From assembly GCF_002075285.3 (NCBI RefSeq), contig NZ_CP021983.2, forward strand, positions 90,001 through 122,000: a stretch of 32,000 nucleotides of DNA, written 5' to 3'. Positions 13,532-29,327 of this stretch are shown in pieces (within the stretch, counting starts at the first letter, position 1; each line of letters starts with the position of its first letter). The DNA is from Halomicronema hongdechloris C2206 (GTDB lineage: Bacteria > Cyanobacteriota > Cyanobacteriia > Phormidesmidales > Phormidesmidaceae). The translations under genes were made by a program, and so were the position numbers. The notes under the pieces are model-generated. The model was not told where the DNA came from. It was given only the letters and a program-made list of their open reading frames with translations, and made no database searches.

Positions 13532-15376
13532 ATGGGTAACATGGGCACCGGTTGGACGCCAGATCAAATTGATTTCCAGGATTACACACTCCGTCACAAC
13601 AAGATCCATGCCCTGGTGAAGCAGATTCAGACTTTTCGCCGCTGTGTTGAACTGCTTGAATCCTTTGAAACGTTTCTCAATAAATTACCGGATGCCCAGA
13701 GTGCACCTGGATTCTTGGGGTGGTTGCTGGGCAATAGTCCCGGAGCCCTGGGTAAACAGGCATTGTTGGAAACCAGCACAGGGCTGCGGCAGGATCTGGA
13801 GATCATCCTGCAGGACATGGTCTCTGGCATTGATCTAATTGTGGCGGAGCCAGTTCTAGATAGCCCGAGTGATCTTGACCGCTTACGACCATTGCCGCCG
13901 CCCTTATCACTGGCGGTACTAGAGGCCTTACAGGATTGCGATATTGTGACGTCGTCAGACGGTGGACAGGGGTCTCGCGATTATCAGGATGCGGGGTTAC
14001 GGTCGATTCGCCACGTACTCGGTCACCTGACGCCCTTGGGACAGTATGGCCAATCGCAGCAGCTGAAATCAGCAATGGTCGACCTGGTGAAGCAGGGACA
14101 ACCGCAGGCTGCGGCTGAGTCCCCTCGACCGGAGAATGTGATCCGCATCAATCCCGACACCATGTATGACTTGCAGGTGAACCCTGCCAGCCGAGCGAGT
14201 CTGCGGCTGCCCCTGACCATGGCCCTGGTGGATGAGCTCAAAGGCCCCCAGGAGCAGTATTACGTGTTGCCCAGCATTGTCGATCTGAGCTATTGGTGTG
14301 GGGCGGTGAAACAGCAGGGAAGCCGCAATAGCTGCACCAGCCATGCGATCGCATCCTTGATCGAATACTTTCAGACCAAGAGCTTTGGCAAGGCCTCCAC
14401 TTCATCGGTGCGCTTTCTCTACAAGGTCACCCGCCGCCTGGGCGAGCTGAGTCAACCACAGCGGCAATACCTACAGGGACTGCTGCGGGATGGTGTCGCC
14501 GAAAAATCCGATGACCAGGCCTTTTCGGCGTTCATGGATACCATCACTGCCTTCAATACCGATGACCACACCCGGGTACAGGAGATTCAGAAGCGGGTGG
14601 CCGACGGGCAGGTTCAGGCCTTCGTCGACCATGCCTTTGACGGCGGCGCGTCCATTCGCCAGACCCTGAAGGCCATGCGACTATTCGGCCTGCCCCCGGG
14701 AAAATACTGGCCCTATACCGTTGAATTTCCCGATTTCGATGAAGAACCACCCCAATTTTGCTATGCCTTTGCCCAAAATTACCAGGCCGTGAAGTATTTT
14801 CGCCTGGACTACTTTGGCGACACGGCTCAGCCCTCGGGTTCAGGAGAGTATGGAGAGGCACCCGCCCCCGAGGCCTCTCCGCAATCGGTGGCAGGACGTG
14901 TCGTACTGACCCAGATCAAGGCGGTGCTGGCCGCCGGCTTTCCGGCAGTGTTTGGGTTCCCCTATGATGCCGCCAATGATCATCCCTATCCTGCCGCCGA
15001 TGGCAGCCAGGCCCCGATCAATTCCTCCAATGGCATGATTAAACTTCCCGAGGATCTCGACACCTTCAAGCGCACCCTGCGGGAAATGCGCCAGGGCAGT
15101 CAGGATGCCATGACCGTGTCCTCACAAACGGCTATTCGTGGCCACGCGGTGATGGCTGTGGGCTATGACGATGCTCGGGAAGCGTTTCTGATCCAAAATT
15201 CCTGGGGCACTGAATGGGGCAACCAGGGCTATGGCTGGCTGGCCTACGACTATGTGCTGCACGGACTGGCGACAGATTGGTGGTCGTTGCTCAATGCCGA
15301 ATGGGTGGAGGCGGGGCAGTTTGGCCTCGACGCGAAATTGGGCGGTACCCAGCAAGTTCCCAAAGCTTTTGGGTAA
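13532..15376 (+). CDS. cytoplasmic papain-like (C1A) cysteine peptidase with an uncharacterised ~245-aa N-terminal region
   Basis: VLPSIVDLSYWCGAVKQQGSRNSCTSHA gives the mature-end LP.S.D motif, oxyanion Gln262 and catalytic Cys268 (tgc 14333-14335). GGASIRQTLKAM...YWPY follows. RGHAVMAVGYDD carries His538 (cac 15143-15145), and IQNSWGTEWGNQGYGW carries Asn556 and the Trp. There is no N-terminal signal peptide. Confidence 0.8.
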   Translation: MGNMGTGWTPDQIDFQDYTLRHNKIHALVKQIQTFRRCVELLESFETFLNKLPDAQSAPGFLGWLLGNSPGALGKQALLETSTGLRQDLEIILQDMVSGIDLIVAEPVLDSPSDLDRLRPLPPPLSLAVLEALQDCDIVTSSDGGQGSRDYQDAGLRSIRHVLGHLTPLGQYGQSQQLKSAMVDLVKQGQPQAAAESPRPENVIRINPDTMYDLQVNPASRASLRLPLTMALVDELKGPQEQYYVLPSIVDLSYWCGAVKQQGSRNSCTSHAIASLIEYFQTKSFGKASTSSVRFLYKVTRRLGELSQPQRQYLQGLLRDGVAEKSDDQAFSAFMDTITAFNTDDHTRVQEIQKRVADGQVQAFVDHAFDGGASIRQTLKAMRLFGLPPGKYWPYTVEFPDFDEEPPQFCYAFAQNYQAVKYFRLDYFGDTAQPSGSGEYGEAPAPEASPQSVAGRVVLTQIKAVLAAGFPAVFGFPYDAANDHPYPAADGSQAPINSSNGMIKLPEDLDTFKRTLREMRQGSQDAMTVSSQTAIRGHAVMAVGYDDAREAFLIQNSWGTEWGNQGYGWLAYDYVLHGLATDWWSLLNAEWVEAGQFGLDAKLGGTQQVPKAFG

Positions 15377-15394
15377 TGATGTCGCCGACTGTCT

Positions 15395-18169
15395 ATGGTC
15401 CTGCTGCCCATGGCTAATGATGCCCTTAAGAGCCAATACCATGTCTTTATCTCCTATTCCCGTCGGAATAAGGCCTTCGTGAAGCAGCTGTTTGAGTATC
15501 TGCGACAATGCGATCGCACCGTTTGGGTCGACTGGGAAGACATTCCCCCCCTGTCCCAGTGGCGCGATGAAATTCGCCAGGGCATCTTGGCCGCCGATAA
15601 CTTCCTGTTCATTCTCAGTCCCGAATCGGCCAACTCGATGGAGTGTCATAAGGAAGTGGAATGGGCCCTGGCCTATCAGAAACGCCTGGTGCCTATCATT
15701 ATCCAACCCATCATAGACACCGACGTCCATCCGGCCCTGCGGGAGATCAACTGGATCTACTTTGACAATCCCGATCAGTTTGAGCAATCTGGGCAGACCC
15801 TGCTGCAGGCTCTCGACACCGATTTAGATTATGTGCGAGCCCATACCCGCCTGTTAACCAAAACCGATGAGTGGAGTCAGCATCAGCGGGATGACAGTCT
15901 GCTGCTACGAGGACAAGTGCTGGAAACCGCCGAGCGATGGCTGATTGAAACCCATAAGAAACCGTCCTTTACCCAGGCCCAGCGAGAATACGTGGCTACC
16001 AGTCGTCGGGCCGAAACCCGGCGGCAACGGCAACGGCAACGACTCCAAGTACTTGCCTTAGGGGGCATCACCATGGCCCTGGTGGTGGTCACTGGGGTGG
16101 GCTTGGTGGCGGAAAGTCGCCGCCGCCAGGCTGTCGTCCAGGGCATCGAGGCCCTGAGTGCTGCCTCGACCGCAAATTTTAGCCTGGGCAATCCTCTCAC
16201 GGCTCTGATGGCAGGATTGCAGGCCGGCCGACAATTGCAATCTGCCCCCTGGGCCGATCCTGAGCTGACCCCGAGGGTTCTGTCGACTCTGGCCGAATCG
16301 GTGTACTGGACTCACGAGCGCAATCACTTAATCGGTCACAGCAATTGGGTGTTTGGAGCCGATTTTAGTCCAGACGGCAACCAGTTAGTATCGGCCAGCC
16401 TCGATGGCAGCTTGAAGCTATGGCACACCAACGGAGAACTACTCAAGACCCTGGAAGGTCACGACGGCAAGGTCGTAGACGTTAGTATCAGCCCCGATGG
16501 CCAAGTCATCGCCTCAGCGGGAGAGGACGGCACGGTACGGCTGTGGCACCCTGACGGAGAACTTTTGAACACCCTGGAAGGCCATCAAGCCTGGGTGACT
16601 TCCGTACACTTTAGCCCCGATGGCCAACGGCTAGCCTCCGCCAGTCTCGATGGCAGCGTGTATCTCTGGCAACGGGATGGTACCTTGCTGCAGCAGTTGA
16701 CTGGTCATACCGGGCCGGTGTTGAGTGTGCACTTTAGTCCCGATGGGCGCTGGCTGGCCTCGGCTAGTGGCGATGGTACAGTGCGATTGTGGGGACGTGA
16801 TGGGGCAGCCTTACAGGTGTTACCAGGAGATAGCAGTAGCCTTTTCGAGGTGCGCTTTAGCCCCGACGGGCAGAGTTTAGCGGCAGCCAGTGAGCAGGGG
16901 AAGATTCTCCACTGGCAAGTGGACGGTACTTCCTTACCAACGATTGGTGACAGTAACCATAAACTCCTTGCCCTTGCCTACAGCCCTGATGGCCGCGTCA
17001 TCGGGGCTGGTAGTGATGATGGCCAGGTGCATCTATGGCGACTGAATGGCCAGCGACTGGCAAGCTTACCGGGACATCAAGGCTCAGTTCGTCATGTTGC
17101 CTTTAGTCCCGATGGTCAATTCATCGCCACCACCGGCGAAGACAATACCGTACGATTGTGGCAATGGCCCTCACCCTGGGTAACGCCTCGATTCGACTCC
17201 GATGTCGTCACTAGTGTGGCTGTGAACCCAACCACAGGACAGTTGGTGTCGGGTAGCGACGATGGCACTCTGAAACTCTGGTCCCCAGCAGGCACCGTGA
17301 CCGCAACCTTGCAGCGGTCTCTCGTGGTCATCAACGGCATGGCGGTGAGTCCGGGAGGGCAGTATCTTGCCGTGGCCGGGGAAGCGGAGGAGTCTGGACA
17401 GGGACTGGTGGAACTCTGGACAGCAGCTGGGCAGTTTGGCCGCCCCCTGGGCAGCCATGGCCAATGGGCCAATGGGGTTGCCTTCAGTCCCGATGGCCAC
17501 CAAATTGCTTCCGTTGGCGGGGATGGCCTGGTTAGGCTCTGGAGTGTGGCGGGGCAATCTCTGCAAGAGCTGGACCACGGCGGTAATCTCTTCGGCGTCG
17601 GCTTTAGTCCCGATGGTCAACGCTTGGCCTCAGCTGGAGAGCAGTCCTTAAAAATCTGGAATCTGGCCGCCGGCAGCGTGGAGCGATCCTTGACTACGGA
17701 GGCCAATCTCTACAGCCTTAGTTTCCATCCCCAGGGCCATACCCTGGCCATTGCCAGTGCCGACCATCGGGTGGGGTTATGGTCCCTGGAATCCGCAGCG
17801 CCCCGTTGGCTAGCGGGCCATACGGCCGAGGTCAATTTTGTCCAGTTCAGCCCCGACGGGACCCGCCTGGCCTCAGCCAGTCAAGACCAAACGGTGCGGC
17901 TCTGGAGTCAGCATGGAGATCCCATCGTGGCCCTGGCCGGCCATGATGAGGGGGTCAAAGCAGTCCGGTTTGATGCCGGGGGGACGACGTTGATCTCAGC
18001 CGGTGAGGACAACCGCATCCTGGTGTGGGATCTGAGTATTTTGCAAGTAGAGACCCTAGTGCAGTTGGGCTGTGCCTGGATCCAGGACTATTTGCAGACG
18101 AATCCGACTCTGACGGAGGCGGAGCAACAGCTCTGTGATGGGGTGACCAAGGATGCAAAGGCTGATTAG
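15395..18169 (+). CDS. TIR domain / single hydrophobic span / 14x WD40-repeat protein
   Basis: aa 16-130: HVFISYSRRNKAFVKQL ... VWVDWEDIPPLSQWRDEI ... FLFILSPESANSMECHKEVEWA is a TIR_2-type domain with the conserved Glu candidate E87 (gaa 15653-15655). aa 218-239: VLALGGITMALVVVTGVGLVA is flanked by Arg clusters. aa 311-882: 14 units of the GH..V..V.FSPDG..LAS.S.DGTVRLW type. The ATG lies 18 nt after the upstream stop; alternative ATG at 15410. Confidence 0.85.
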   Translation: MVLLPMANDALKSQYHVFISYSRRNKAFVKQLFEYLRQCDRTVWVDWEDIPPLSQWRDEIRQGILAADNFLFILSPESANSMECHKEVEWALAYQKRLVPIIIQPIIDTDVHPALREINWIYFDNPDQFEQSGQTLLQALDTDLDYVRAHTRLLTKTDEWSQHQRDDSLLLRGQVLETAERWLIETHKKPSFTQAQREYVATSRRAETRRQRQRQRLQVLALGGITMALVVVTGVGLVAESRRRQAVVQGIEALSAASTANFSLGNPLTALMAGLQAGRQLQSAPWADPELTPRVLSTLAESVYWTHERNHLIGHSNWVFGADFSPDGNQLVSASLDGSLKLWHTNGELLKTLEGHDGKVVDVSISPDGQVIASAGEDGTVRLWHPDGELLNTLEGHQAWVTSVHFSPDGQRLASASLDGSVYLWQRDGTLLQQLTGHTGPVLSVHFSPDGRWLASASGDGTVRLWGRDGAALQVLPGDSSSLFEVRFSPDGQSLAAASEQGKILHWQVDGTSLPTIGDSNHKLLALAYSPDGRVIGAGSDDGQVHLWRLNGQRLASLPGHQGSVRHVAFSPDGQFIATTGEDNTVRLWQWPSPWVTPRFDSDVVTSVAVNPTTGQLVSGSDDGTLKLWSPAGTVTATLQRSLVVINGMAVSPGGQYLAVAGEAEESGQGLVELWTAAGQFGRPLGSHGQWANGVAFSPDGHQIASVGGDGLVRLWSVAGQSLQELDHGGNLFGVGFSPDGQRLASAGEQSLKIWNLAAGSVERSLTTEANLYSLSFHPQGHTLAIASADHRVGLWSLESAAPRWLAGHTAEVNFVQFSPDGTRLASASQDQTVRLWSQHGDPIVALAGHDEGVKAVRFDAGGTTLISAGEDNRILVWDLSILQVETLVQLGCAWIQDYLQTNPTLTEAEQQLCDGVTKDAKAD
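16325..18040 (+). repeat. 14 tandem WD40-coding units (~123 nt each) inside the TIR gene
   Basis: The recurring motif tt(t/c)ag(c/t)cccga(t/c)gg (FSPDG) appears at roughly 123-nt spacing, for example near 16613, 16733, 16856, 17103, 17477, 17603 and 17847. The units are diverged at nucleotide level. Confidence 0.85.
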
Positions 18170-18549: not shown

Positions 18550-19314
18550 CTATTTTTTCTTTTTTTTCTTTTTCTTGCTGGATTTCTTGCTGAATTTCTT
18601 GGATGGAGAGGCTGCCTGGGTTCCCCCAGATCCAAATCCTTGTACTTGCGTCGGTGAAGATGGTTTAGGGGCCTTAAGAGAGCCCTGACCAAATTTGGCT
18701 GGTGTCTCCGAAGCAAGGGCGTCTAAATCTAGGGGCAACCCAGATTTTACGGCACTCACCTTGCCTTGGTTCGAGAGGTCATTCAACCATTCGCTGAAGG
18801 CCTCTAGCTGCGGCAAAGCCGCCCGCAACTCTCGGATGGATTCCGGCACGAAGTCATCCGGCTCGAAGTCTGATTCTGCTTTCAATCCCAGATCCACTTG
18901 CACCCTAGGCCAAGTCCCCGCACACATCTCGTCGATGTTGCCCTCGGCATAGACGGCGGCAATCAAATCAGCCGCCTCTACAACCTGAAACTTAACCAGC
19001 CCGTCCACCAGCCAACCATTGAGACCATCAGCATTATCGCGATAGGCCTTTAGCTGCTGCCATAGAATTTCTACACAGGTTGCCTGGGCATCGGGATACT
19101 GGTTACCGATGAGTTTAATGCCCTCGGCAATGGGAATCTTGCTCCACTCCGATAGGCCTTCGCGGGCTAAATAGGGCATCAGATCCGGTAACACCTCTGG
19201 TCCCATCAGAGCCAAGACCTCAGGGATTTCCTCACAGAAATAGTCATCATATTCATACTCTACTAGGAGCTTCAGGAGCGGCTGCAGGGCCTCTATCGCC
19301 CTAAGTTGTCCCAA
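18550..19314 (-). CDS. HEAT-repeat-like hypothetical protein with a C-terminal lysine-rich tail
   Basis: The 254-aa ORF starts at TTG. LGQLRAIEALQPLLKLL resembles a PBS-lyase/HEAT repeat. The C-terminus is KKFSKKSSKKKKKKKK. The first in-frame ATG is only at aa 37. Confidence 0.5.
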   Translation of the reverse strand: MGQLRAIEALQPLLKLLVEYEYDDYFCEEIPEVLALMGPEVLPDLMPYLAREGLSEWSKIPIAEGIKLIGNQYPDAQATCVEILWQQLKAYRDNADGLNGWLVDGLVKFQVVEAADLIAAVYAEGNIDEMCAGTWPRVQVDLGLKAESDFEPDDFVPESIRELRAALPQLEAFSEWLNDLSNQGKVSAVKSGLPLDLDALASETPAKFGQGSLKAPKPSSPTQVQGFGSGGTQAASPSKKFSKKSSKKKKKKKK

Positions 19315-23207: not shown

Positions 23208-24066
23208 TGGCAGGGGCTGCCACCCTGTTCTGGTCAGCAAGAGATGCCGAGGAAGAGCAGTATACCTCCACCGAGTTATTGGGACTCTCTATCAGCTTTA
23301 CCTTATGAAGTCTGGCACCAGTTGCCTGAATGGGCTGGCGCAGACGATCCCGAATATGCACAGCAATGTTCTCAGCCGTAGGCACAACCTCGGCAAAATA
23401 GGGGACATCTTTATTGAGAAACGTGTGATCGAAGGGCTCAACCACATGGGTATCAATGGCAACCTGTAACTCTCCCAGGTCAGCAATCATACCCGTGCGG
23501 GAATCAATTTCCCCGCACACCGTGACCTCCAGATGATAGTTGTGGCCATGGCCGTGGGGACGGGCGCACTTACCATAGATGGCGCAGTTTTCTTCATAGC
23601 TCAGCTGTGGCAGTGCTAACCGATGGGCGGCACTGAAGTGAGTACTAATGGTGAGATAGGCTTCCATGGAATCTCCTGTATAGTCAGCCCAAAGTTCTGG
23701 ATGTTCGTACAGGCGAATATTTACCAATGGCAGGTACGATACCAGGCGGTGCCAGAGGACATAGGCCATATATTCGGTAGTGGGCAGCGTCTGCTGAAAC
23801 TCCGGCCATACATCGTTGAGATAGGCAAAATCAAGCTGGCTAGTCACCTCTCGCTTGATTACCGTCTTGACATCAGACAGGTTGAGCACCATGCCATACT
23901 CATCCAACTGCCCTGCCATAGAAACATACAGCACATAATTGTGACCATGGCCCGGTGCCTTGGTACAGAGCCCAAACTGGTCAGCATTGTCAGCCGCGCT
24001 TAATTCAGGCAGCCAATATCGATGGCTAGCGGAAAATTGAGCCCGGCGATGGATGATACAGGTCAT
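23197..24066 (-). CDS. tandem-domain 6-pyruvoyl-tetrahydropterin synthase / QueD-family protein
   Basis: There are two complete PTPS modules: FSASHRYW...CTKAPGHGHNY...LDFAYLND and FSAAHRLA...KCARPHGHGHNY...FDHTFLNKD...PTAENIA. I chose the ATG at 24064-24066 (MTCIIHRR). Upstream alternatives are the ATG at 24174 and the TTG at 24180. Confidence 0.8.
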   Translation of the reverse strand: MTCIIHRRAQFSASHRYWLPELSAADNADQFGLCTKAPGHGHNYVLYVSMAGQLDEYGMVLNLSDVKTVIKREVTSQLDFAYLNDVWPEFQQTLPTTEYMAYVLWHRLVSYLPLVNIRLYEHPELWADYTGDSMEAYLTISTHFSAAHRLALPQLSYEENCAIYGKCARPHGHGHNYHLEVTVCGEIDSRTGMIADLGELQVAIDTHVVEPFDHTFLNKDVPYFAEVVPTAENIAVHIRDRLRQPIQATGARLHKVKLIESPNNSVEVYCSSSASLADQNRVAAPAMAT

Positions 24067-24345
24067 GGGAATACTATGAACAAGTTCTACGTTGCATGAA
24101 TCTGTGTTAACTGCTCCCACTCCAGGATAACGGAAAGTTTTAGAGGCTGACTCCCCTAACAGAGGCGCTTTCATCCCCAATTAGAAGGCGCCCTAAAGTA
24201 AGGCTAATTTTGGGTAAGGCCAGAATTAATTTTTGATACAGATTTCTCTGAGGTTAGTGCAGTGAGTCCTGCCAAATACTCTCATACTGGAAGTTTCAGC
24301 TATTTTAAAGTTAATCTCATGAGTTGCTGACAAAGGAGCAAAACA

Positions 24346-24359
24346 GTAAAATAAGATAC
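24346..24359. promoter_or_regulatory. NtcA-type box GTA-N8-TAC
   Basis: GTAaaataagaTAC is a perfect match to the NtcA consensus. It lies in the AT-rich divergent promoter region, 13 nt upstream of the riboswitch P1. Confidence 0.5.
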
Positions 24360-24371
24360 AGAATAGTAAAT

Positions 24372-24458
24372 CGTTCATCCTACCTAAGGTCGCATGTCAA
24401 GGTCGCATGTCGATGCTAAGGGGGACGGAAGTAGGGACTACTCCCGAAGGAACGCGCC
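24372..24458 (+). promoter_or_regulatory. glutamine riboswitch (glnA RNA motif)
   Basis: aaatCGTTCATCC ... GGGGGACGGAAGTAGGGactactCCCGAAGGAACGcgcc. P1 pairs CGTTC (24372-24376) with GAACG (24450-24454). The conserved ACGGAAGUAGG and GAAGGAACGC blocks are present. The P3 hairpin is GGGA-cuac-UCCC. It sits in the 5' leader of a DUF4278 gene, the usual cyanobacterial context. Confidence 0.75.
24386..24411. repeat. perfect 13-nt tandem duplication (aaggtcgcatgtc x2) inside the riboswitch P2 region
   Basis: Direct reading: 24386-24398 is identical to 24399-24411. Confidence 0.95.
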
Positions 24459-24506
24459 TCAAATCGAAGATTTCCTAGCAATTGCTTAGATGACAGGAGG
24501 CGATAA

Positions 24507-24935
24507 ATGAAACTTTGCTATCGCGGCGTTGAATACGATTACAATCCCCCCATGCTAGAGGTTACCGATGAAGAGCTGCAGGGATGTTATCGTGGCCGTT
24601 CGCTACGATTTTCCTATGTACGTCATATTCCCATCCCCCAACCAGTAGCGGAGATGACCTACCGCGGCATTCCATATCGCACCAATTCCAATGGTCAAGT
24701 AGAGCCTGCTGCCACTAAGCCCAAGTCATCCCTAACACTGAACCTAACTAGCCCAATGGCCAATCCAATGGCAAAGGCTCGTCGCCAGTTACTGCGCGAA
24801 GCGGCTAGTGCTCACCGTGATAACATTCAGCGCAGCCTTCAGCACCGCCTGGAGGTTGCTCGAGCCCAAGGTAATCAGGCCCTGATTCAGCAGTTAGAGG
24901 ATGAAATGCATCAGCTGACTGAAGTGGTGTCGTAA
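24507..24935 (+). CDS. DUF4278 protein; candidate glutamine synthetase inactivating factor IF17 (gifB-like)
   Basis: MKLCYRGVEYDYNPP ... YRGRSLRF ... TYRGIPYR is the DUF4278 N-terminal pattern. The C-terminal helix is Arg-rich (ARRQLLREAASAHRDNIQRSLQHRLEVARAQG). AGGAGG lies 6 nt upstream. The gene is preceded by a glutamine riboswitch and an NtcA box. Confidence 0.7.
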   Translation: MKLCYRGVEYDYNPPMLEVTDEELQGCYRGRSLRFSYVRHIPIPQPVAEMTYRGIPYRTNSNGQVEPAATKPKSSLTLNLTSPMANPMAKARRQLLREAASAHRDNIQRSLQHRLEVARAQGNQALIQQLEDEMHQLTEVVS

Positions 24936-25050
24936 CATAGTCTGGCCTCATACATCTAGGCTTAGGCTAAAGAGTCGGTGAATGTACGCTAGGACAAAAT
25001 TCAAGGCTGGTAAGCATAAGTTGAGAGTTGTGCTGTAGCTGGAGCAGTCG

Positions 25051-26285: not shown

Positions 26286-26627
26286 GGAAATAGGGCTGTG
26301 GAGGATGGCTGAGATAGGAATATCATTGCCAGGTAACTGAGGCCAAGGGGGATTTGTCAATGCCCCAACTGTCTCGGCAACGGGGTTCGGATTCCTGTAC
26401 CAGGCCCCTTGGCATAGGTCCCCTTCTCTTAGCTATGATAGATGCCAGTTCTACTGCGGCGTTGGTGACTGCCAACACTGTTTTACGATCTATGTTTGTT
26501 CGATAAGGGAACTGAGATGCTGCGGTGGCAGTAAACCGGGCTTGTACCCGGAAACTTAAAGCCGTAGCCACGGTGCCCACCTGGTTTTACCAGGTCGAAA
26601 ACTGAGGTAAGACGGCGTCGCGGTGAA

Positions 26628-29327
26628 CTAATTCAAGCTTTCCCCATGGCTAAGCTGATGAGAGGGGTGATGGCCGTTCTGGGGTGCTGAGAGATCACGA
26701 CTGGGGGGATTTTTTTGCCACAGAGGAATCTCTACGACGAATTGGCTACCCCGCCCCGGTTTAGAGCGGCAGCGCAGTCGGCCATGGTGTTGATTGACGA
26801 CGATCTGGTAAGTAATTGACATGCCTAAGCCAGTCCCTTTTCCCACGGGCTTGGTGGTGAAAAACGGATCGAGGATGCGCTGTTGAGTCTCTTCTGAAAT
26901 GCCGATGCCATTGTCAGAAATGGTAATTTCTACTCTGTTTGCATCTGGCAGTGCGGTTGCGATCGCAATGGTTGGTATCCACCGCGGCGACGGCTGGGCC
27001 TGCCATTTTTCCTCTAAGGCATCTATGGCATTGCTCAGTAGATTCATGAATACCTGATTTAGCTGGCTGACATAGCACTCTATGGCAGGTAAGGGCTCGT
27101 AGTGCCTTCGCACCAAGATGGCCGGGCGTTCTCCGTGGGCTTTGAGGCGACTGCCCAGAATCGTCAGAGTACTTTCAATGCTGTCGCGAATGTCGACCAA
27201 CTTCAGCTCGGTGCCACCCTGCCGCGAGAAGGTCCGCAGCGACTGGACGATATCGCGAATGCGCTCGGTGCCACCACGCACCGATTTCAGTAACTTGGGT
27301 AAATCTTCCAGGAGATACTCTAGCTCAATCTTCTGTTCAAGGTGCTGTACGGCTGGCGGGGCAGGGTCAATACTGTGCTGATAACTCTGCAGCAGCGTCA
27401 ACAGGTCATCAACATAGTGTTCAGCATGGATGAGATTGCCATAGATATAGTTGACCGGATTATTGATTTCATGGGCTAGACCCGACACTAACTGGCCTAA
27501 ACTCGACATTTTCTCGCTTTGCACCAGCTGTATCTGAGCGGTCTGTAGGTCTTGTAAGGCTTGCTCAAGCTGACGGGTTTTGCGGTCTTTTTCGGCCGCT
27601 TCTTGGATAGCTTCTTCGGCTTGTTTGCGGAGAGTAATATCTCGCAGGATCACCGTGTAGAGCGTCTCGTGGCGAGTTTGCATGGTGGCCACGGTGACCT
27701 CAACCGGAAATGAACTACCGCTGCGGCGACGACCGACGACTTCGTAGGGGTTGCCATCGGCACTGGCGGCAGCCAAAAACCGCGCCATTGTCTCTTGGCA
27801 GTCGGGGGCGGTCTCCTCTATGGACAGCAGCAAGGTCAGAGGTTGACCGCAGAGTTGTGCCTCTGCAATGCCAAATAGCTTCCGCACGGAAGGGTTGGCC
27901 GTTTGGACGGTGAGAGAATGGGGCGATACGGTCAAGATGGCCTCGATGGCCGATTGTACGATGGCCTCGGTATGGGCGACGGCTTCCTCCAGGGCAGCCA
28001 TGACGCGGTTATAGCGGGCGGCGATTTGGCCCACCGGAGTAAAGGGTTCTGCCGGGCTACGCAGGCTCAGATCGCCACTGCGTTCTTGGCGGCGCATGAC
28101 AGCGATCAGATCGACTAGGTCGCTGGTGGCTCCATGCTCAGCTACGTTGAGGCCGATATGCTCTTGCCGACGCCCCACCCGCAGAGGATACCAGCGATTC
28201 AGGGCCGTCAGTAATGGATAGGTGAGGCCAAAGGCCCAAAGGGCGGCGATGACGATGCCTAGGCATTGAATTTGCAGCTGCTCCAACCGAGTTAACCCGG
28301 TATTGAGCAGGGTCAGGTCGCCAAATAAAGCAACCGCTAGGGTGCCCCAAATACCGGCACTGAGATGGACTGGAATGGCGCCTACGACATCGTCGATGTG
28401 CCATCGCTGCAGTAGGCGTTCGGTGGCTAACATGAGGCCGCTGCCAAGGCTACCGATGAGTATGGCGTCGAAGGCGGTGACGGCATGACAGTTGGCGGTA
28501 ATGGCCACCAGGCCAGCCAGGGAACCATTCATCACCGCGGTGACGGCTATGCGTTGTCCCTGAAGTAATCCCAAGAGAATCGGGGTGACTAAGCCGGCGG
28601 CTGCGGCCAGGAGAGTATTGGCAATAATGCCCGGTACGGTGTCATCTAAGGCGAGGACACTGCCACCGTTGAAGCCAAACCAGCCCAGCCACAGTAGTAG
28701 AGTGCCTAGGGACGCCAGGGGTAAATCGTAGCCAAACAGTTGACGGTTGCCTCGCTTGCAGGAAAAACGACCGATGCGCGGCCCCAAAATCAGGACTGAG
28801 GCTAAGGCAACCCAGCCGCCGATACTGTGAACCACGGTGGAGCCGGCAAAATCAATGAAGCCTAAGTGTCCTAACCAGCCGGTAGTCGCGTTGCGCTCTA
28901 AACCTCCCCAGGCCCAATGGCCAAAGACGGGATATACAATCCCGGAAATCAAGATGGCGATGAGAACATAGCTGCTGAAGCGCATGCGTTCTGCTACGGC
29001 ACCGGAGACAATGGTGACGGCGGTGCTGCAGAACATGGCTTGAAACAGGAAGAAAACGCCCATCCAAACCTGGCCCTGGCCCACATCGGGAGCCCAGTGA
29101 CTGGTGCCGATCCAGCCGTCGTAGGAGCTGCCAAACATGAGGCCATAGCCAAAGCCCCAAAAACACAGCACCGATAATCCCAGATCGGCAATATTCTTGA
29201 TGACGACGTTGATATTGTGTTTGCTGCGGGTGGATCCGGCCTCTAGGCAGAGGAAACCAGCCTGCATCAGAAATACCAGGCTGGCGCAGACAATGACCCA
29301 GAGGATATCGATGAGGTCTTTAGTCAC
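26628..29327 (-). CDS. ammonium transporter (Amt) domain fused to PAS and histidine kinase (HisKA + HATPase_c)
   Basis: aa 1-400 are Amt: LMQAGFLCLEAG, FIDFAGSTVVHSIGG (D159, H167), GPRIGRF, FGFNGGS, AIPVHLSAGIWG (H321). aa ~455-565 are PAS-like. LAHEINNPVNY carries the candidate phospho-His619. DNGIGI and GKGTGLGMSI are the G1/G2 boxes. The start codon is GTG. Confidence 0.9.
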   Translation of the reverse strand: MTKDLIDILWVIVCASLVFLMQAGFLCLEAGSTRSKHNINVVIKNIADLGLSVLCFWGFGYGLMFGSSYDGWIGTSHWAPDVGQGQVWMGVFFLFQAMFCSTAVTIVSGAVAERMRFSSYVLIAILISGIVYPVFGHWAWGGLERNATTGWLGHLGFIDFAGSTVVHSIGGWVALASVLILGPRIGRFSCKRGNRQLFGYDLPLASLGTLLLWLGWFGFNGGSVLALDDTVPGIIANTLLAAAAGLVTPILLGLLQGQRIAVTAVMNGSLAGLVAITANCHAVTAFDAILIGSLGSGLMLATERLLQRWHIDDVVGAIPVHLSAGIWGTLAVALFGDLTLLNTGLTRLEQLQIQCLGIVIAALWAFGLTYPLLTALNRWYPLRVGRRQEHIGLNVAEHGATSDLVDLIAVMRRQERSGDLSLRSPAEPFTPVGQIAARYNRVMAALEEAVAHTEAIVQSAIEAILTVSPHSLTVQTANPSVRKLFGIAEAQLCGQPLTLLLSIEETAPDCQETMARFLAAASADGNPYEVVGRRRSGSSFPVEVTVATMQTRHETLYTVILRDITLRKQAEEAIQEAAEKDRKTRQLEQALQDLQTAQIQLVQSEKMSSLGQLVSGLAHEINNPVNYIYGNLIHAEHYVDDLLTLLQSYQHSIDPAPPAVQHLEQKIELEYLLEDLPKLLKSVRGGTERIRDIVQSLRTFSRQGGTELKLVDIRDSIESTLTILGSRLKAHGERPAILVRRHYEPLPAIECYVSQLNQVFMNLLSNAIDALEEKWQAQPSPRWIPTIAIATALPDANRVEITISDNGIGISEETQQRILDPFFTTKPVGKGTGLGMSITYQIVVNQHHGRLRCRSKPGRGSQFVVEIPLWQKNPPSRDLSAPQNGHHPSHQLSHGESLN

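Follow-up and report, generated by a model that had tools for sequence, protein, structure and literature searches.

The stretch of DNA analysed here, hereafter the window, comprises 32,000 nucleotides (nt) of Halomicronema hongdechloris C2206 (NZ_CP021983.2), and all coordinates given below are positions within it. On its forward strand, the window carries two consecutive genes that constitute a real, conserved and co-oriented module, with an adjacency far beyond that expected by chance. The first of them, gene A (13532–15376), encodes a predicted cytoplasmic, xylellain-type C1A cysteine protease of 614 amino acids (aa), which a protein search found to be 100% identical to XM38_000860, annotated as "Peptidase C1A papain". 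The second, gene B (15395–18169), encodes a 924-aa protein in which a TIR domain is followed by a helical mid domain, a predicted transmembrane (TM) helix, a stalk, 14 WD40 repeats and a C-terminal cap containing a cysteine pair. The spacer that separates both genes on the same strand (15377–15394) is 18 nt long, extending from the TAA stop codon of gene A (15374–15376) to the ATG of gene B at 15395, and a scan of this spacer revealed no terminator-like site, making co-transcription of the two genes likely. An initial annotation of the locus, made from the sequence alone, had reported two co-directional open reading frames (ORFs) 18 nt apart, and the coordinates it gave coincide exactly with those obtained here.

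The C1A catalytic domain of gene A spans residues 244–600 (14261–15331, forward strand) and contains several internal inserts, which explain the short coverage of the Pfam Peptidase_C1 model (PF00112), matching residues 534–573 only with 31.2 bits against a cut-off of 20.7. Among solved structures, gene A comes closest to the xylellain of Xylella fastidiosa (3OIS; E=1e-16), to which the segments bearing the Cys, the middle of the domain and the His/Asn pair could all be aligned, and a short cyanobacterial relative of 295 aa (locus L028) aligns with 3OIS over the whole catalytic domain (E=1.6e-32). The residues encoded by the four catalytic codons on the forward strand (Q262 at 14315–14317, C268 at 14333–14335, H538 at 15143–15145, and N556 at 15197–15199) occupy columns that are invariant among 16 full-length orthologues as well as in a family alignment of 34 sequences. 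The spacing between Q262 and C268 is 6, as for Q19 and C25 of papain, H538 lies within a GHAV motif and N556 within QNSWG, where "NSW" matches papain. On sequence grounds, gene A is hence classified as a xylellain-type C1A (papain-fold) cysteine protease with an intact catalytic set.

The N-terminal region of gene A is more unusual. Residues 5–18 (GTGWTPDQIDFQDY; 13544–13585, forward strand) hold a signature of the family with consensus GWxPDxPDxRDY, of which residues 7–18 (GWTPDQIDFQDY) are a slightly divergent copy, with G7, W8, D11, and D17 invariant across gene A orthologues. In the form GW[LIQ][PR]D.PD.RD[YFKWH], this signature is present in nearly all the xylellain-type C1A peptidases surveyed (L013–L072), from both bacteria and archaea. 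In the short, stand-alone enzymes it is found 35–55 aa ahead of the catalytic domain, whereas in gene A the two are parted by a clade-specific, mostly helical insert of ~225 aa (residues 19–243; 13586–14260, forward strand), a spacing seen in WD40-linked forms only. The insert is an orphan: residues 1–243 have no Pfam match, and a profile search of 1.84 billion cluster representatives with the N-terminal region of gene A returned 22 matches, which were C1 orthologues, fragments, or the first 55–95 aa of long-form C1 proteins. An AlphaFold2 (AF2) model of gene A based on 16 orthologues reached a predicted local distance difference test score (pLDDT) of 59, falling below 50 in the catalytic core and rendering the N-terminal insert as helical with moderate confidence. 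Foldseek searches with this weak model yielded 3OIS as the top match and papain-fold matches only, and produced no match for residues 1–245. Likewise, a 75-aa segment bearing the motif and searched against the PDB did not match the xylellain chain of 3OIS, so that equating the motif with the N-terminal pro-region of xylellain found no support, and we would only infer that the signature might constitute a pro-peptide plug of the active site, or else a structural strand.

Neither a signal peptide nor a TM helix was detected in gene A in a hydrophobicity scan, its best 19-residue window (mean 1.64) lying within the conserved catalytic core. Signal peptides, Tat motifs, and TM helices are in fact absent from all the proteases examined, and the cysteine content of these proteins is ordinary, often odd-numbered and devoid of conserved pairs. 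On the basis of both observations, the gene A product is predicted to be cytoplasmic. Furthermore, the combination of a family-wide N-terminal signature with a regulatory-looking insert suggests that the protease might be kept in a latent state.

The pairing of genes A and B is conserved well beyond the window. In filamentous cyanobacteria, a gene B homologue lies next to the extended C1 gene, on the same strand, at 23 of 23 evaluable loci (three further loci are cut by contig ends), and the 17 pairs that were mapped precisely are all co-oriented, with gaps of 4–233 nt. A comparison of neighbourhoods revealed no other neighbour common to the paired loci. Orthologues of gene A, from Leptolyngbya, Leptothoe, Adonisia, and uncultured Leptolyngbyaceae (L001–L009, besides the window), are all followed by a gene B orthologue. 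A second and larger C1 clade comprises long-form proteins of ~590–1030 aa, in which the signature precedes a long helical extension, often with a PG_binding_1 domain (E=1.4e-18) that Pfam does not detect in gene A itself, and then the C1 domain. These long-form genes (L010, L012, L014, L015, L019, L022, L025, L026, L030, L036, and L076–L079) lie directly downstream of a gene encoding the gene B-type body of TM helix, stalk and WD40 repeats, with a homologous mid domain if the head is a TIR, and gene order is therefore C1 to WD40 in one clade and WD40 to C1 in the other. Sequence identities of the protease catalytic domain and of the partner ectodomain correlate across pairs (Mantel r=0.83; reached in 0 of 2000 permutations), a co-divergence to which shared species history contributes. 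The short, stand-alone C1 proteins of cyanobacteria (L028, L040) and of many other phyla have no such receptor neighbour. Conversely, three relatives with a TIR-TM-WD40 architecture, including a close Phormidesmis homologue, have no C1 gene within 6 kb, and obligate reciprocity of the pair was hence rejected in favour of a one-sided dependence in which the protease is an add-on. In Phormidesmis sp. 146-20 (L075:6001–9006), the gene B homologue (57% identity in the TIR domain; no C1 within 6 kb) is split into ORFs of 449 and 518 aa, which may reflect decay after loss of the protease or a frameshift in the assembly. The co-location of both families in other genomes, raised as a question by the initial annotation, is thus borne out by the neighbourhood survey, although the pairing of a C1 protease with a TIR-WD40 protein proves too narrow a description: the actual unit is an extended C1 protease together with a [variable head]-TM-WD40 protein.

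The head of the receptor is indeed swappable. It consists of a single TIR domain in the clade of the window and in L014, L022, and L030, of two TIRs in another Halomicronema (L076), of three in L010 and L015, and of at least five in L019. In other partners, it is made up of Peptidase_C14 and nSTAND1 (L012, L078), of CHAT and nSTAND1 (L079), or of nSTAND1 with another or no recognisable N-terminus (L036, L077). In the multi-TIR partners (L015:1339–5352, L010:2864–6926, L019:60–5309, and L076:2845–6960), the TIRs are located ahead of the TM helix, and in L010, L015, and L019 a separate copy of the mid helical module comes after every TIR; such tandem heads may represent pre-assembled TIR arrays. 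In conflict systems, the output typically resides in the variable element, and sensing and transduction in a constant core. The constancy of the protease while the head varies hence ties the protease to the receptor body, and not to a nucleotide made by the TIR domain. The reverse possibility, effector swapping on the protease side through an adaptor domain, was considered and rejected, because both types of N-terminal extension occur with C1 only; the other matches in profile searches with these extensions were true peptidoglycan hydrolases, retrieved through PG_binding_1. The metagenomic contig L079, besides its C1/WD40 pair, encodes additional Peptidase_C14 proteins and another gene of the C14-nSTAND1-WD40 type within 7 kb (L079:13250–17087), accompanied by a PG_binding_1 protein that stands alone and by a fragment of a transposase; such receptors thus form a local cluster there.

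In gene B, the head is a TIR_2 domain (residues 15–141; 15437–15817, forward strand) that Pfam recognises over residues 17–136 with 95 bits against a cut-off of 28 (E=5.9e-27). Its putative catalytic glutamate, E87 (15653–15655), lies in an S-x-x-C-x-x-E motif and does not vary among 10 orthologues or among 103 relatives that have the TIR and mid domains in common; it would be the counterpart of SARM1 E642 or AbTir E208. An AF2 model of residues 1–328 built on 103 sequences attained a pLDDT of 91.4, and above 95 over the TIR domain (15–141), which is followed in the model by two mid-domain helices (144–162 and 173–184). Foldseek places this TIR domain close to NAD-processing TIRs (AbTir with 3AD, SARM1, SPARTA) and also to receptor and adaptor TIRs (Hydra TRR-2, TLR1/6/10, MyD88), with TM-scores of 0.64–0.86 that are target-normalised and refer to single-domain TIR chains, the range given for the AbTir, SARM1, TLR, and MyD88 chains being 0.69–0.86. 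With its putative catalytic Glu in place, the gene B TIR is predicted to be of the NADase type.

The cytoplasmic mid domain that follows (residues 144–193; 15824–15973, forward strand), with an invariant D143/W160 region, is homologous across TIR-type partners, and neither it nor the stalk was matched in the Foldseek searches. In two nSTAND1-type partners (L012 and L036), tblastn searches with the mid region gave no match at E<1e-4, and the juxtamembrane pattern of nSTAND1-type partners is, on reading their sequences by eye, similar in appearance. The module formed by the TIR and mid domains, with or without the TM helix, was also observed with other C-terminal domains, such as TPR_9 (PF13371) and SH3_3 (PF08239), and outside the cyanobacteria, in Pyrinomonadaceae, Poribacteria, and Burkholderiales. 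Proteins bearing it in such other settings (P0083, P0087, P0090, P0110, P0133, and P0157) indicate that this juxtamembrane module is a widespread building block.

Beyond the mid domain, gene B contains a single outstanding hydrophobic segment, the predicted TM helix at residues 219–237 (VLALGGITMALVVVTGVGL; 16049–16105, forward strand), with a Kyte-Doolittle 19-mer mean of 2.27, the next best being 1.38. In the AF2 model, this segment lies inside a continuous 70-residue helix (194–263) that runs unbroken through the hydrophobic span with a pLDDT above 93. One such outstanding 19-mer is present in each of 14 partners from different genera and with different heads (Kyte-Doolittle mean 1.9–2.8), and the segment is hence probably a true TM helix. 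Its flanks contain seven Lys and Arg residues on the N-side and three on the C-side, and Lys and Arg are likewise richer on the N-flank than on the C-flank in 13 of the 14 partners. The helix leads into a helical stalk (residues 238–309; 16106–16321, forward strand) that is conserved among the partners compared, with AF2 helices at 267–282 and 291–309, and then into the predicted extracytoplasmic sensor, 14 WD40 repeats (16322–18049, forward strand; Pfam WD40 E=6e-123) that take up the C-terminal ~600 residues and were counted from 14 "xLW" repeat ends. The structure closest to these repeats is that of a Nostoc WD40 repeat protein (2YMU; E=3e-204), which shares the same ERNxLxGHS start at the boundary. 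A STAND P-loop NTPase domain was not found in gene B with Pfam.

The distribution of cysteines agrees with the orientation suggested by the flanking charges. The C-terminal cap (18050–18166, forward strand) displays the motif GCxW..YL..NP...LC, with C893 (18071–18073) and C914 (18134–18136) invariant in gene B orthologues and exactly two cysteines in the last 45 aa of 14 out of 14 partners; these two residues probably form a disulfide. The ectodomain core of gene B, in contrast, has no cysteine. Pooled over the 14 partners, the core (the ~640 residues from the helix to the last 45) contains 2 cysteines in 9003 residues (0.022%), against 58 in 5110 (1.14%) before the helix (Fisher p=1.5e-23) and 1.01% in the other proteins of the window. 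Domains that fold in an oxidising compartment are usually recognised by just this pattern, in which cysteine is avoided apart from a single conserved pair. The lone hydrophobic helix, its positive N-flank and the Cys-poor ectodomain with a conserved pair thus lead to the prediction that gene B is a single-pass receptor, with its TIR domain in the cytoplasm and its WD40 repeats in the periplasm or the thylakoid lumen. The domain assignments of the initial annotation, which comprised the complete C1A set (Gln262, Cys268, His538, Asn556) and the lack of a signal peptide in gene A as well as the TIR_2 domain with E87 and the 14 WD40 blades after a hydrophobic span in gene B, have therefore all stood up. 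Its proposal of two independent effectors under a WD40 sensor may hold, but a simple version of it with every part in the cytoplasm would not, since the TM helix would place the WD40 repeats outside.

Taken together, these observations lead us to favour, tentatively and at somewhat less than even confidence for the mechanism as a whole, a reading of the pair as a two-component module of membrane receptor and latent protease that operates by receptor clustering. In this model, the WD40 ectodomain would bind a cue on the envelope side, for example part of a phage, damage to the cell wall or signalling by neighbouring cells, and clustering of the receptor, or movement along its rigid TM helix, would gather the cytoplasmic heads. 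The gathered TIR domains would then be switched on, resulting in NAD+ cleavage or signal production. In parallel, the clustered receptor would activate the protease, presumed to be in physical contact with it and docked on its cytoplasmic juxtamembrane part, and the active protease would cut either cellular proteins, which we favour as its target, or the linker of the receptor itself. As a result, that cell of the filament would stop growing or die. A role in conflict or cell death appears the most reasonable, because the alternative heads (TIR arrays, and caspase or CHAT with nSTAND1) are classical effector and NTPase modules.

Several considerations weigh against this proposal. On the side of the protease, latency is presumptive, given that the gene A model is poor (pLDDT 59) and that the signature found no match in the xylellain chain, and the PG_binding_1 domain of the long forms is in bacteria usually extracytoplasmic. 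On the side of the receptor, the topology derives from sequence rules applied to related sequences, and the Cys-free WD40 repeats could partly reflect the amplification of a Cys-free repeat unit. A sensor outside and a protease inside would preclude any direct contact between the two, and the mid domain is demonstrably common to TIR-type partners only, which makes a cytoplasmic docking site present in all partners hypothetical. For nSTAND1-type partners, moreover, a STAND NTPase cut off from its sensor by the membrane is mechanistically unorthodox. The existence of TIR-TM-WD40 relatives devoid of a C1 partner means that the protease is not essential to this type of receptor. Lastly, PADLOC provides weak TIR matches only, and no defence-island context was seen at the window locus or at the other loci inspected, where neighbours are unrelated and mostly housekeeping, so that an immune role is putative.

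Among the alternatives, the one to which we give most credit, while still deeming it unlikely, follows the second model of the initial annotation and casts the C1 enzyme as a processing protease that cuts the juxtamembrane linker of the receptor and frees the head from the membrane to oligomerise, or that continuously trims receptors for the sake of safety or turnover. A constant protease accompanying varied heads fits an action on a part common to all partners, the Arg/Lys-rich juxtamembrane segment is present in every one of them, and both the tight linkage and the strong co-divergence of the two genes are in keeping with it, as is the analogy with bacterial gasdermins activated by neighbouring proteases and with the regulated proteolysis of membrane-tethered factors. 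Yet no cleavage site is identifiable, the mid domain is not demonstrably common to nSTAND1-type partners, and contact between the two proteins would be hypothetical in this scheme too. The occurrence of protease-less TIR-TM-WD40 relatives implies that release from the membrane is not generally required, and membrane-tethered TIRs can already cluster in two dimensions. A Thoeris-like circuit, in which the TIR domain converts NAD+ into a nucleotide of the cyclic ADP-ribose (cADPR) type that is bound by the N-terminal region of the protease, thereby releasing it, seems improbable. It has a precedent in type IV Thoeris, where N7-cADPR reportedly activates a caspase-like protease (bioRxiv 10.1101/2024.10.24.620036), and the invariance of E87, the similarity of the TIR fold to NAD-processing TIRs and the orphan N-terminal region of the protease would all suit such a circuit. 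The same protease family is nevertheless partnered with TIR-less heads (C14 with nSTAND1, CHAT with nSTAND1, or nSTAND1 alone), and its N-terminal region is wholly different between clades that both have TIR heads. Pfam, PADLOC, and NCBIfam scans detected no nucleotide-sensor domain (SLOG, Macro, SAVED, STING), Thoeris models score far below their cut-off (25.6 against 220 bits), and neither a papain-fold effector nor WD40 repeats feature in any of the 29 Thoeris configurations of a systematic survey. A nucleotide made by the TIR domain and sensed by the protease N-terminal region, the first model put forward by the initial annotation, is accordingly disfavoured, given that the partnership persists without TIR and that this region varies between TIR-headed clades.

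The remaining alternatives relocate the protease or reassign the purpose of the module. Export of the protease by an unrecognised route, so that it would act by the WD40 ectodomain in shedding or ligand processing with the TIR domain as cytoplasmic read-out, strikes us as very improbable. The partner WD40 repeats are predicted to be extracytoplasmic, and the PG_binding_1 domain of the long-form relatives (E=1.4e-18) is typical of extracytoplasmic, wall-associated proteins, but its fold also serves as the pro-domain of a protease in matrix metalloproteinases, and gene A is devoid of it. For the xylellain-like peptidases of plant pathogens, non-classical secretion has been predicted (PMC12090721), against which stand the absence of signal peptide, Tat motif or TM helix in every protease examined and a cysteine content that is ordinary, often odd-numbered and without conserved pairs. 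A non-conflict module is about as improbable to us as the Thoeris-like circuit; it would sense the envelope or act in development (filament fragmentation, necridia, hormogonia, envelope stress), and in it the TIR domain would serve as scaffold or as a regulator linked to NAD, and the protease would be regulatory. The housekeeping neighbourhood, the signs of long residence (HIP1 in both genes and a GC content like that of the surroundings), the restriction of identified hosts to filamentous cyanobacteria, and the lack of defence-island association at the loci inspected are all congruent with such a module. Caspase, CHAT, nSTAND1, and tandem TIR heads, on the other hand, are hallmarks of conflict and cell-death systems, and the catalytic Glu of NAD-cleaving TIRs is invariant. 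This last alternative differs from the receptor-clustering model in trigger and purpose, and not in molecular anatomy.

The genomic setting of the pair suggests long residence. Its neighbours in the window are of housekeeping type and include a CitMHS transporter, an APS kinase, an FGGY sugar kinase, an ABC ATPase, a divergent Dus-family gene, an SLH protein, a solute-binding protein, a TPR protein, and PTPS, and its GC content resembles that of the surroundings. The HIP1 element (GCGATCGC) occurs at 14345 within gene A and at 15510 within gene B, and 14 times in the whole window against 0.5 expected by chance. Both HIP1 positions, together with the unrelated housekeeping flanks and the divergent dusA, had been listed in the initial annotation and are found as described there. 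A phage or prophage origin was considered and rejected, as PHROGs gave a generic peptidase match only and both HIP1 density and GC are host-like; two C1 domains of jumbo phages are distant, with 22% identity. A 221-aa ORF antisense to the A/B junction (15122–15787, reverse strand) is most likely spurious, both sense genes being conserved across the junction. Downstream of gene B, a convergent ORF of 254 aa (18550–19314, reverse strand) ends in a poly-lysine tail (SKKSSKKKKKKKK) and has no Pfam or PHROG match. Elsewhere in the window, a full-length 6S RNA (SsrS; Rfam RF00013, 106.6 bits against a gathering score of 46.4) lies at 26448–26630 on the forward strand, and a glutamine riboswitch aptamer (RF01739, 48.5 bits against 35) at 24370–24458 on the same strand, within a low-GC stretch (24001–25000; GC 0.474).

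Searches for known systems recovered the constituent domains but no recognised assembly, as the initial annotation had anticipated. PADLOC returned no match for gene A and only a generic TIR for gene B, its ThsB models matching the TIR core at E=4.5e-8 or weaker, and in NCBIfam the Thoeris_type3_ThcB4 model scored 25.6 bits against a cut-off of 220, with retron-TIR models also far below their cut-offs. Membership of a described defence system, Thoeris included, was hence rejected: ThsB thresholds are missed and the effector partner is not a described one. Neither a papain-fold C1A partner nor a membrane-spanning arrangement is described in the literature searched, which lay mostly outside subscription journals and covered two studies on conflict systems (Kaur 2020, 2021), a 2026 STAND survey, a 2025 systematic TIR survey, a paper on the evolution of the papain family and one on cyanobacterial caspases. 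The earlier suggestion that no described system pairs a C1A protease with a TIR-WD40 protein is therefore consistent with PADLOC, NCBIfam, and this body of work.

Should the receptor-clustering model be correct, a papain-fold enzyme would be added to the few proteases, so far caspase-like, trypsin-like, and others, that are connected to TIR or STAND death machinery. The bacterial TIR and STAND immune proteins described to date have mostly been regarded as sensing phage components in the cytoplasm. Death machinery driven by a sensor outside the cytoplasm would raise the question of which envelope cue (phage adsorption, wall damage, or signals from kin or neighbours) matters in multicellular cyanobacteria. 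The widespread but functionally obscure xylellain-type C1A peptidases would also gain a first genetically anchored partner and, with it, a testable role, and a two-gene system with clear active-site controls (E87A, C268A) is experimentally tractable. A broader generalisation, which we regard as rather unlikely, would see these loci as a trans-envelope "death receptor" family of filamentous cyanobacteria, in which an extracytoplasmic WD40 sensor is connected through a rigid TM helix to interchangeable executioner heads, and every receptor has a latent papain-fold protease of its own for transducing or executing the signal. These would be the first STAND/TIR immune modules with their sensor across a membrane, and would represent a bacterial counterpart of Toll-like or death-receptor signalling in which danger is sensed outside the cytoplasm.

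Comparison with known systems helps delimit what is shared and what is distinctive. With the short xylellain-type C1A enzymes (3OIS; PMC10380794), gene A shares the catalytic family, the Gln-Cys-His-Asn set, the GWxPDxPDxRDY signature and the lack of a signal peptide, but it differs from them in its ~225-aa orphan insert, its internal inserts and its obligate pairing with a TM-WD40 receptor gene. Type IV Thoeris, composed of a ThsB TIR protein and the caspase-like ThsE, is likewise a two-gene unit of TIR and cysteine protease with death or growth arrest as the expected outcome. In the pair studied here, however, the protease has the papain fold of C1A and not the caspase fold of C14, the TIR domain heads a 924-aa WD40 membrane receptor, the partnership persists without TIR, and there is no defence-island context.

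The closest parallels are found among effector-(STAND)-WD40/TPR conflict systems. Cyanobacterial TIR-WD40 proteins and the caspase-WD40(14) "cbMC-beta" proteins have long been known (PMC2853523), effector-WD40/TPR systems of multicellular bacteria were described by Kaur, Burroughs, Iyer, and Aravind (2020, 2021), and nSTAND1 was defined in the second of these studies (Kaur et al., 2021). Variable TIR, caspase, and CHAT heads, nSTAND1 in paralogous partners, a 14-repeat WD40 region and enrichment in filamentous cyanobacteria are all common ground. Gene B departs from effector-STAND-WD40 proteins in lacking an NTPase, in interposing a predicted TM helix between head and sensor, and in having a dedicated papain-fold partner. 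In the two studies by Kaur et al., the term "papain" refers only to a peptidoglycan peptidase and a transglutaminase-like domain, and no discussion of a TM separation between head and sensor was found in them.

Outside the bacterial conflict systems, Toll-like receptors show the succession that is predicted for gene B, of a repeat ectodomain, one membrane pass, and a cytoplasmic TIR, and the gene B TIR superposes on those of Hydra TRR-2 and TLR1/6/10. The polarity of gene B is nonetheless inverted, with an N-terminal TIR, its ectodomain consists of WD40 and not of leucine-rich repeats, and its TIR retains the NADase-type catalytic Glu; the likeness is taken as analogy only, with no sign of common descent of the architecture. 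The Apaf-1 apoptosome and the bacterial gasdermin-protease pairs also couple a repeat sensor to a latent, death-executing protease, a latency that for gene A is presumptive, and one of the solved structures nearer to the gene B repeats is the WD40 region of Apaf-1. Those systems are entirely cytoplasmic, with proteases of caspase-like or other folds that are recruited through CARD or fused to the sensor, whereas here a papain-fold protease is separately encoded and the sensor is predicted to lie across a membrane. Within an effector/WD40-type module to which a function can be ascribed by inference, the new features are thus the dedicated papain-fold protease and the predicted extracytoplasmic sensor.

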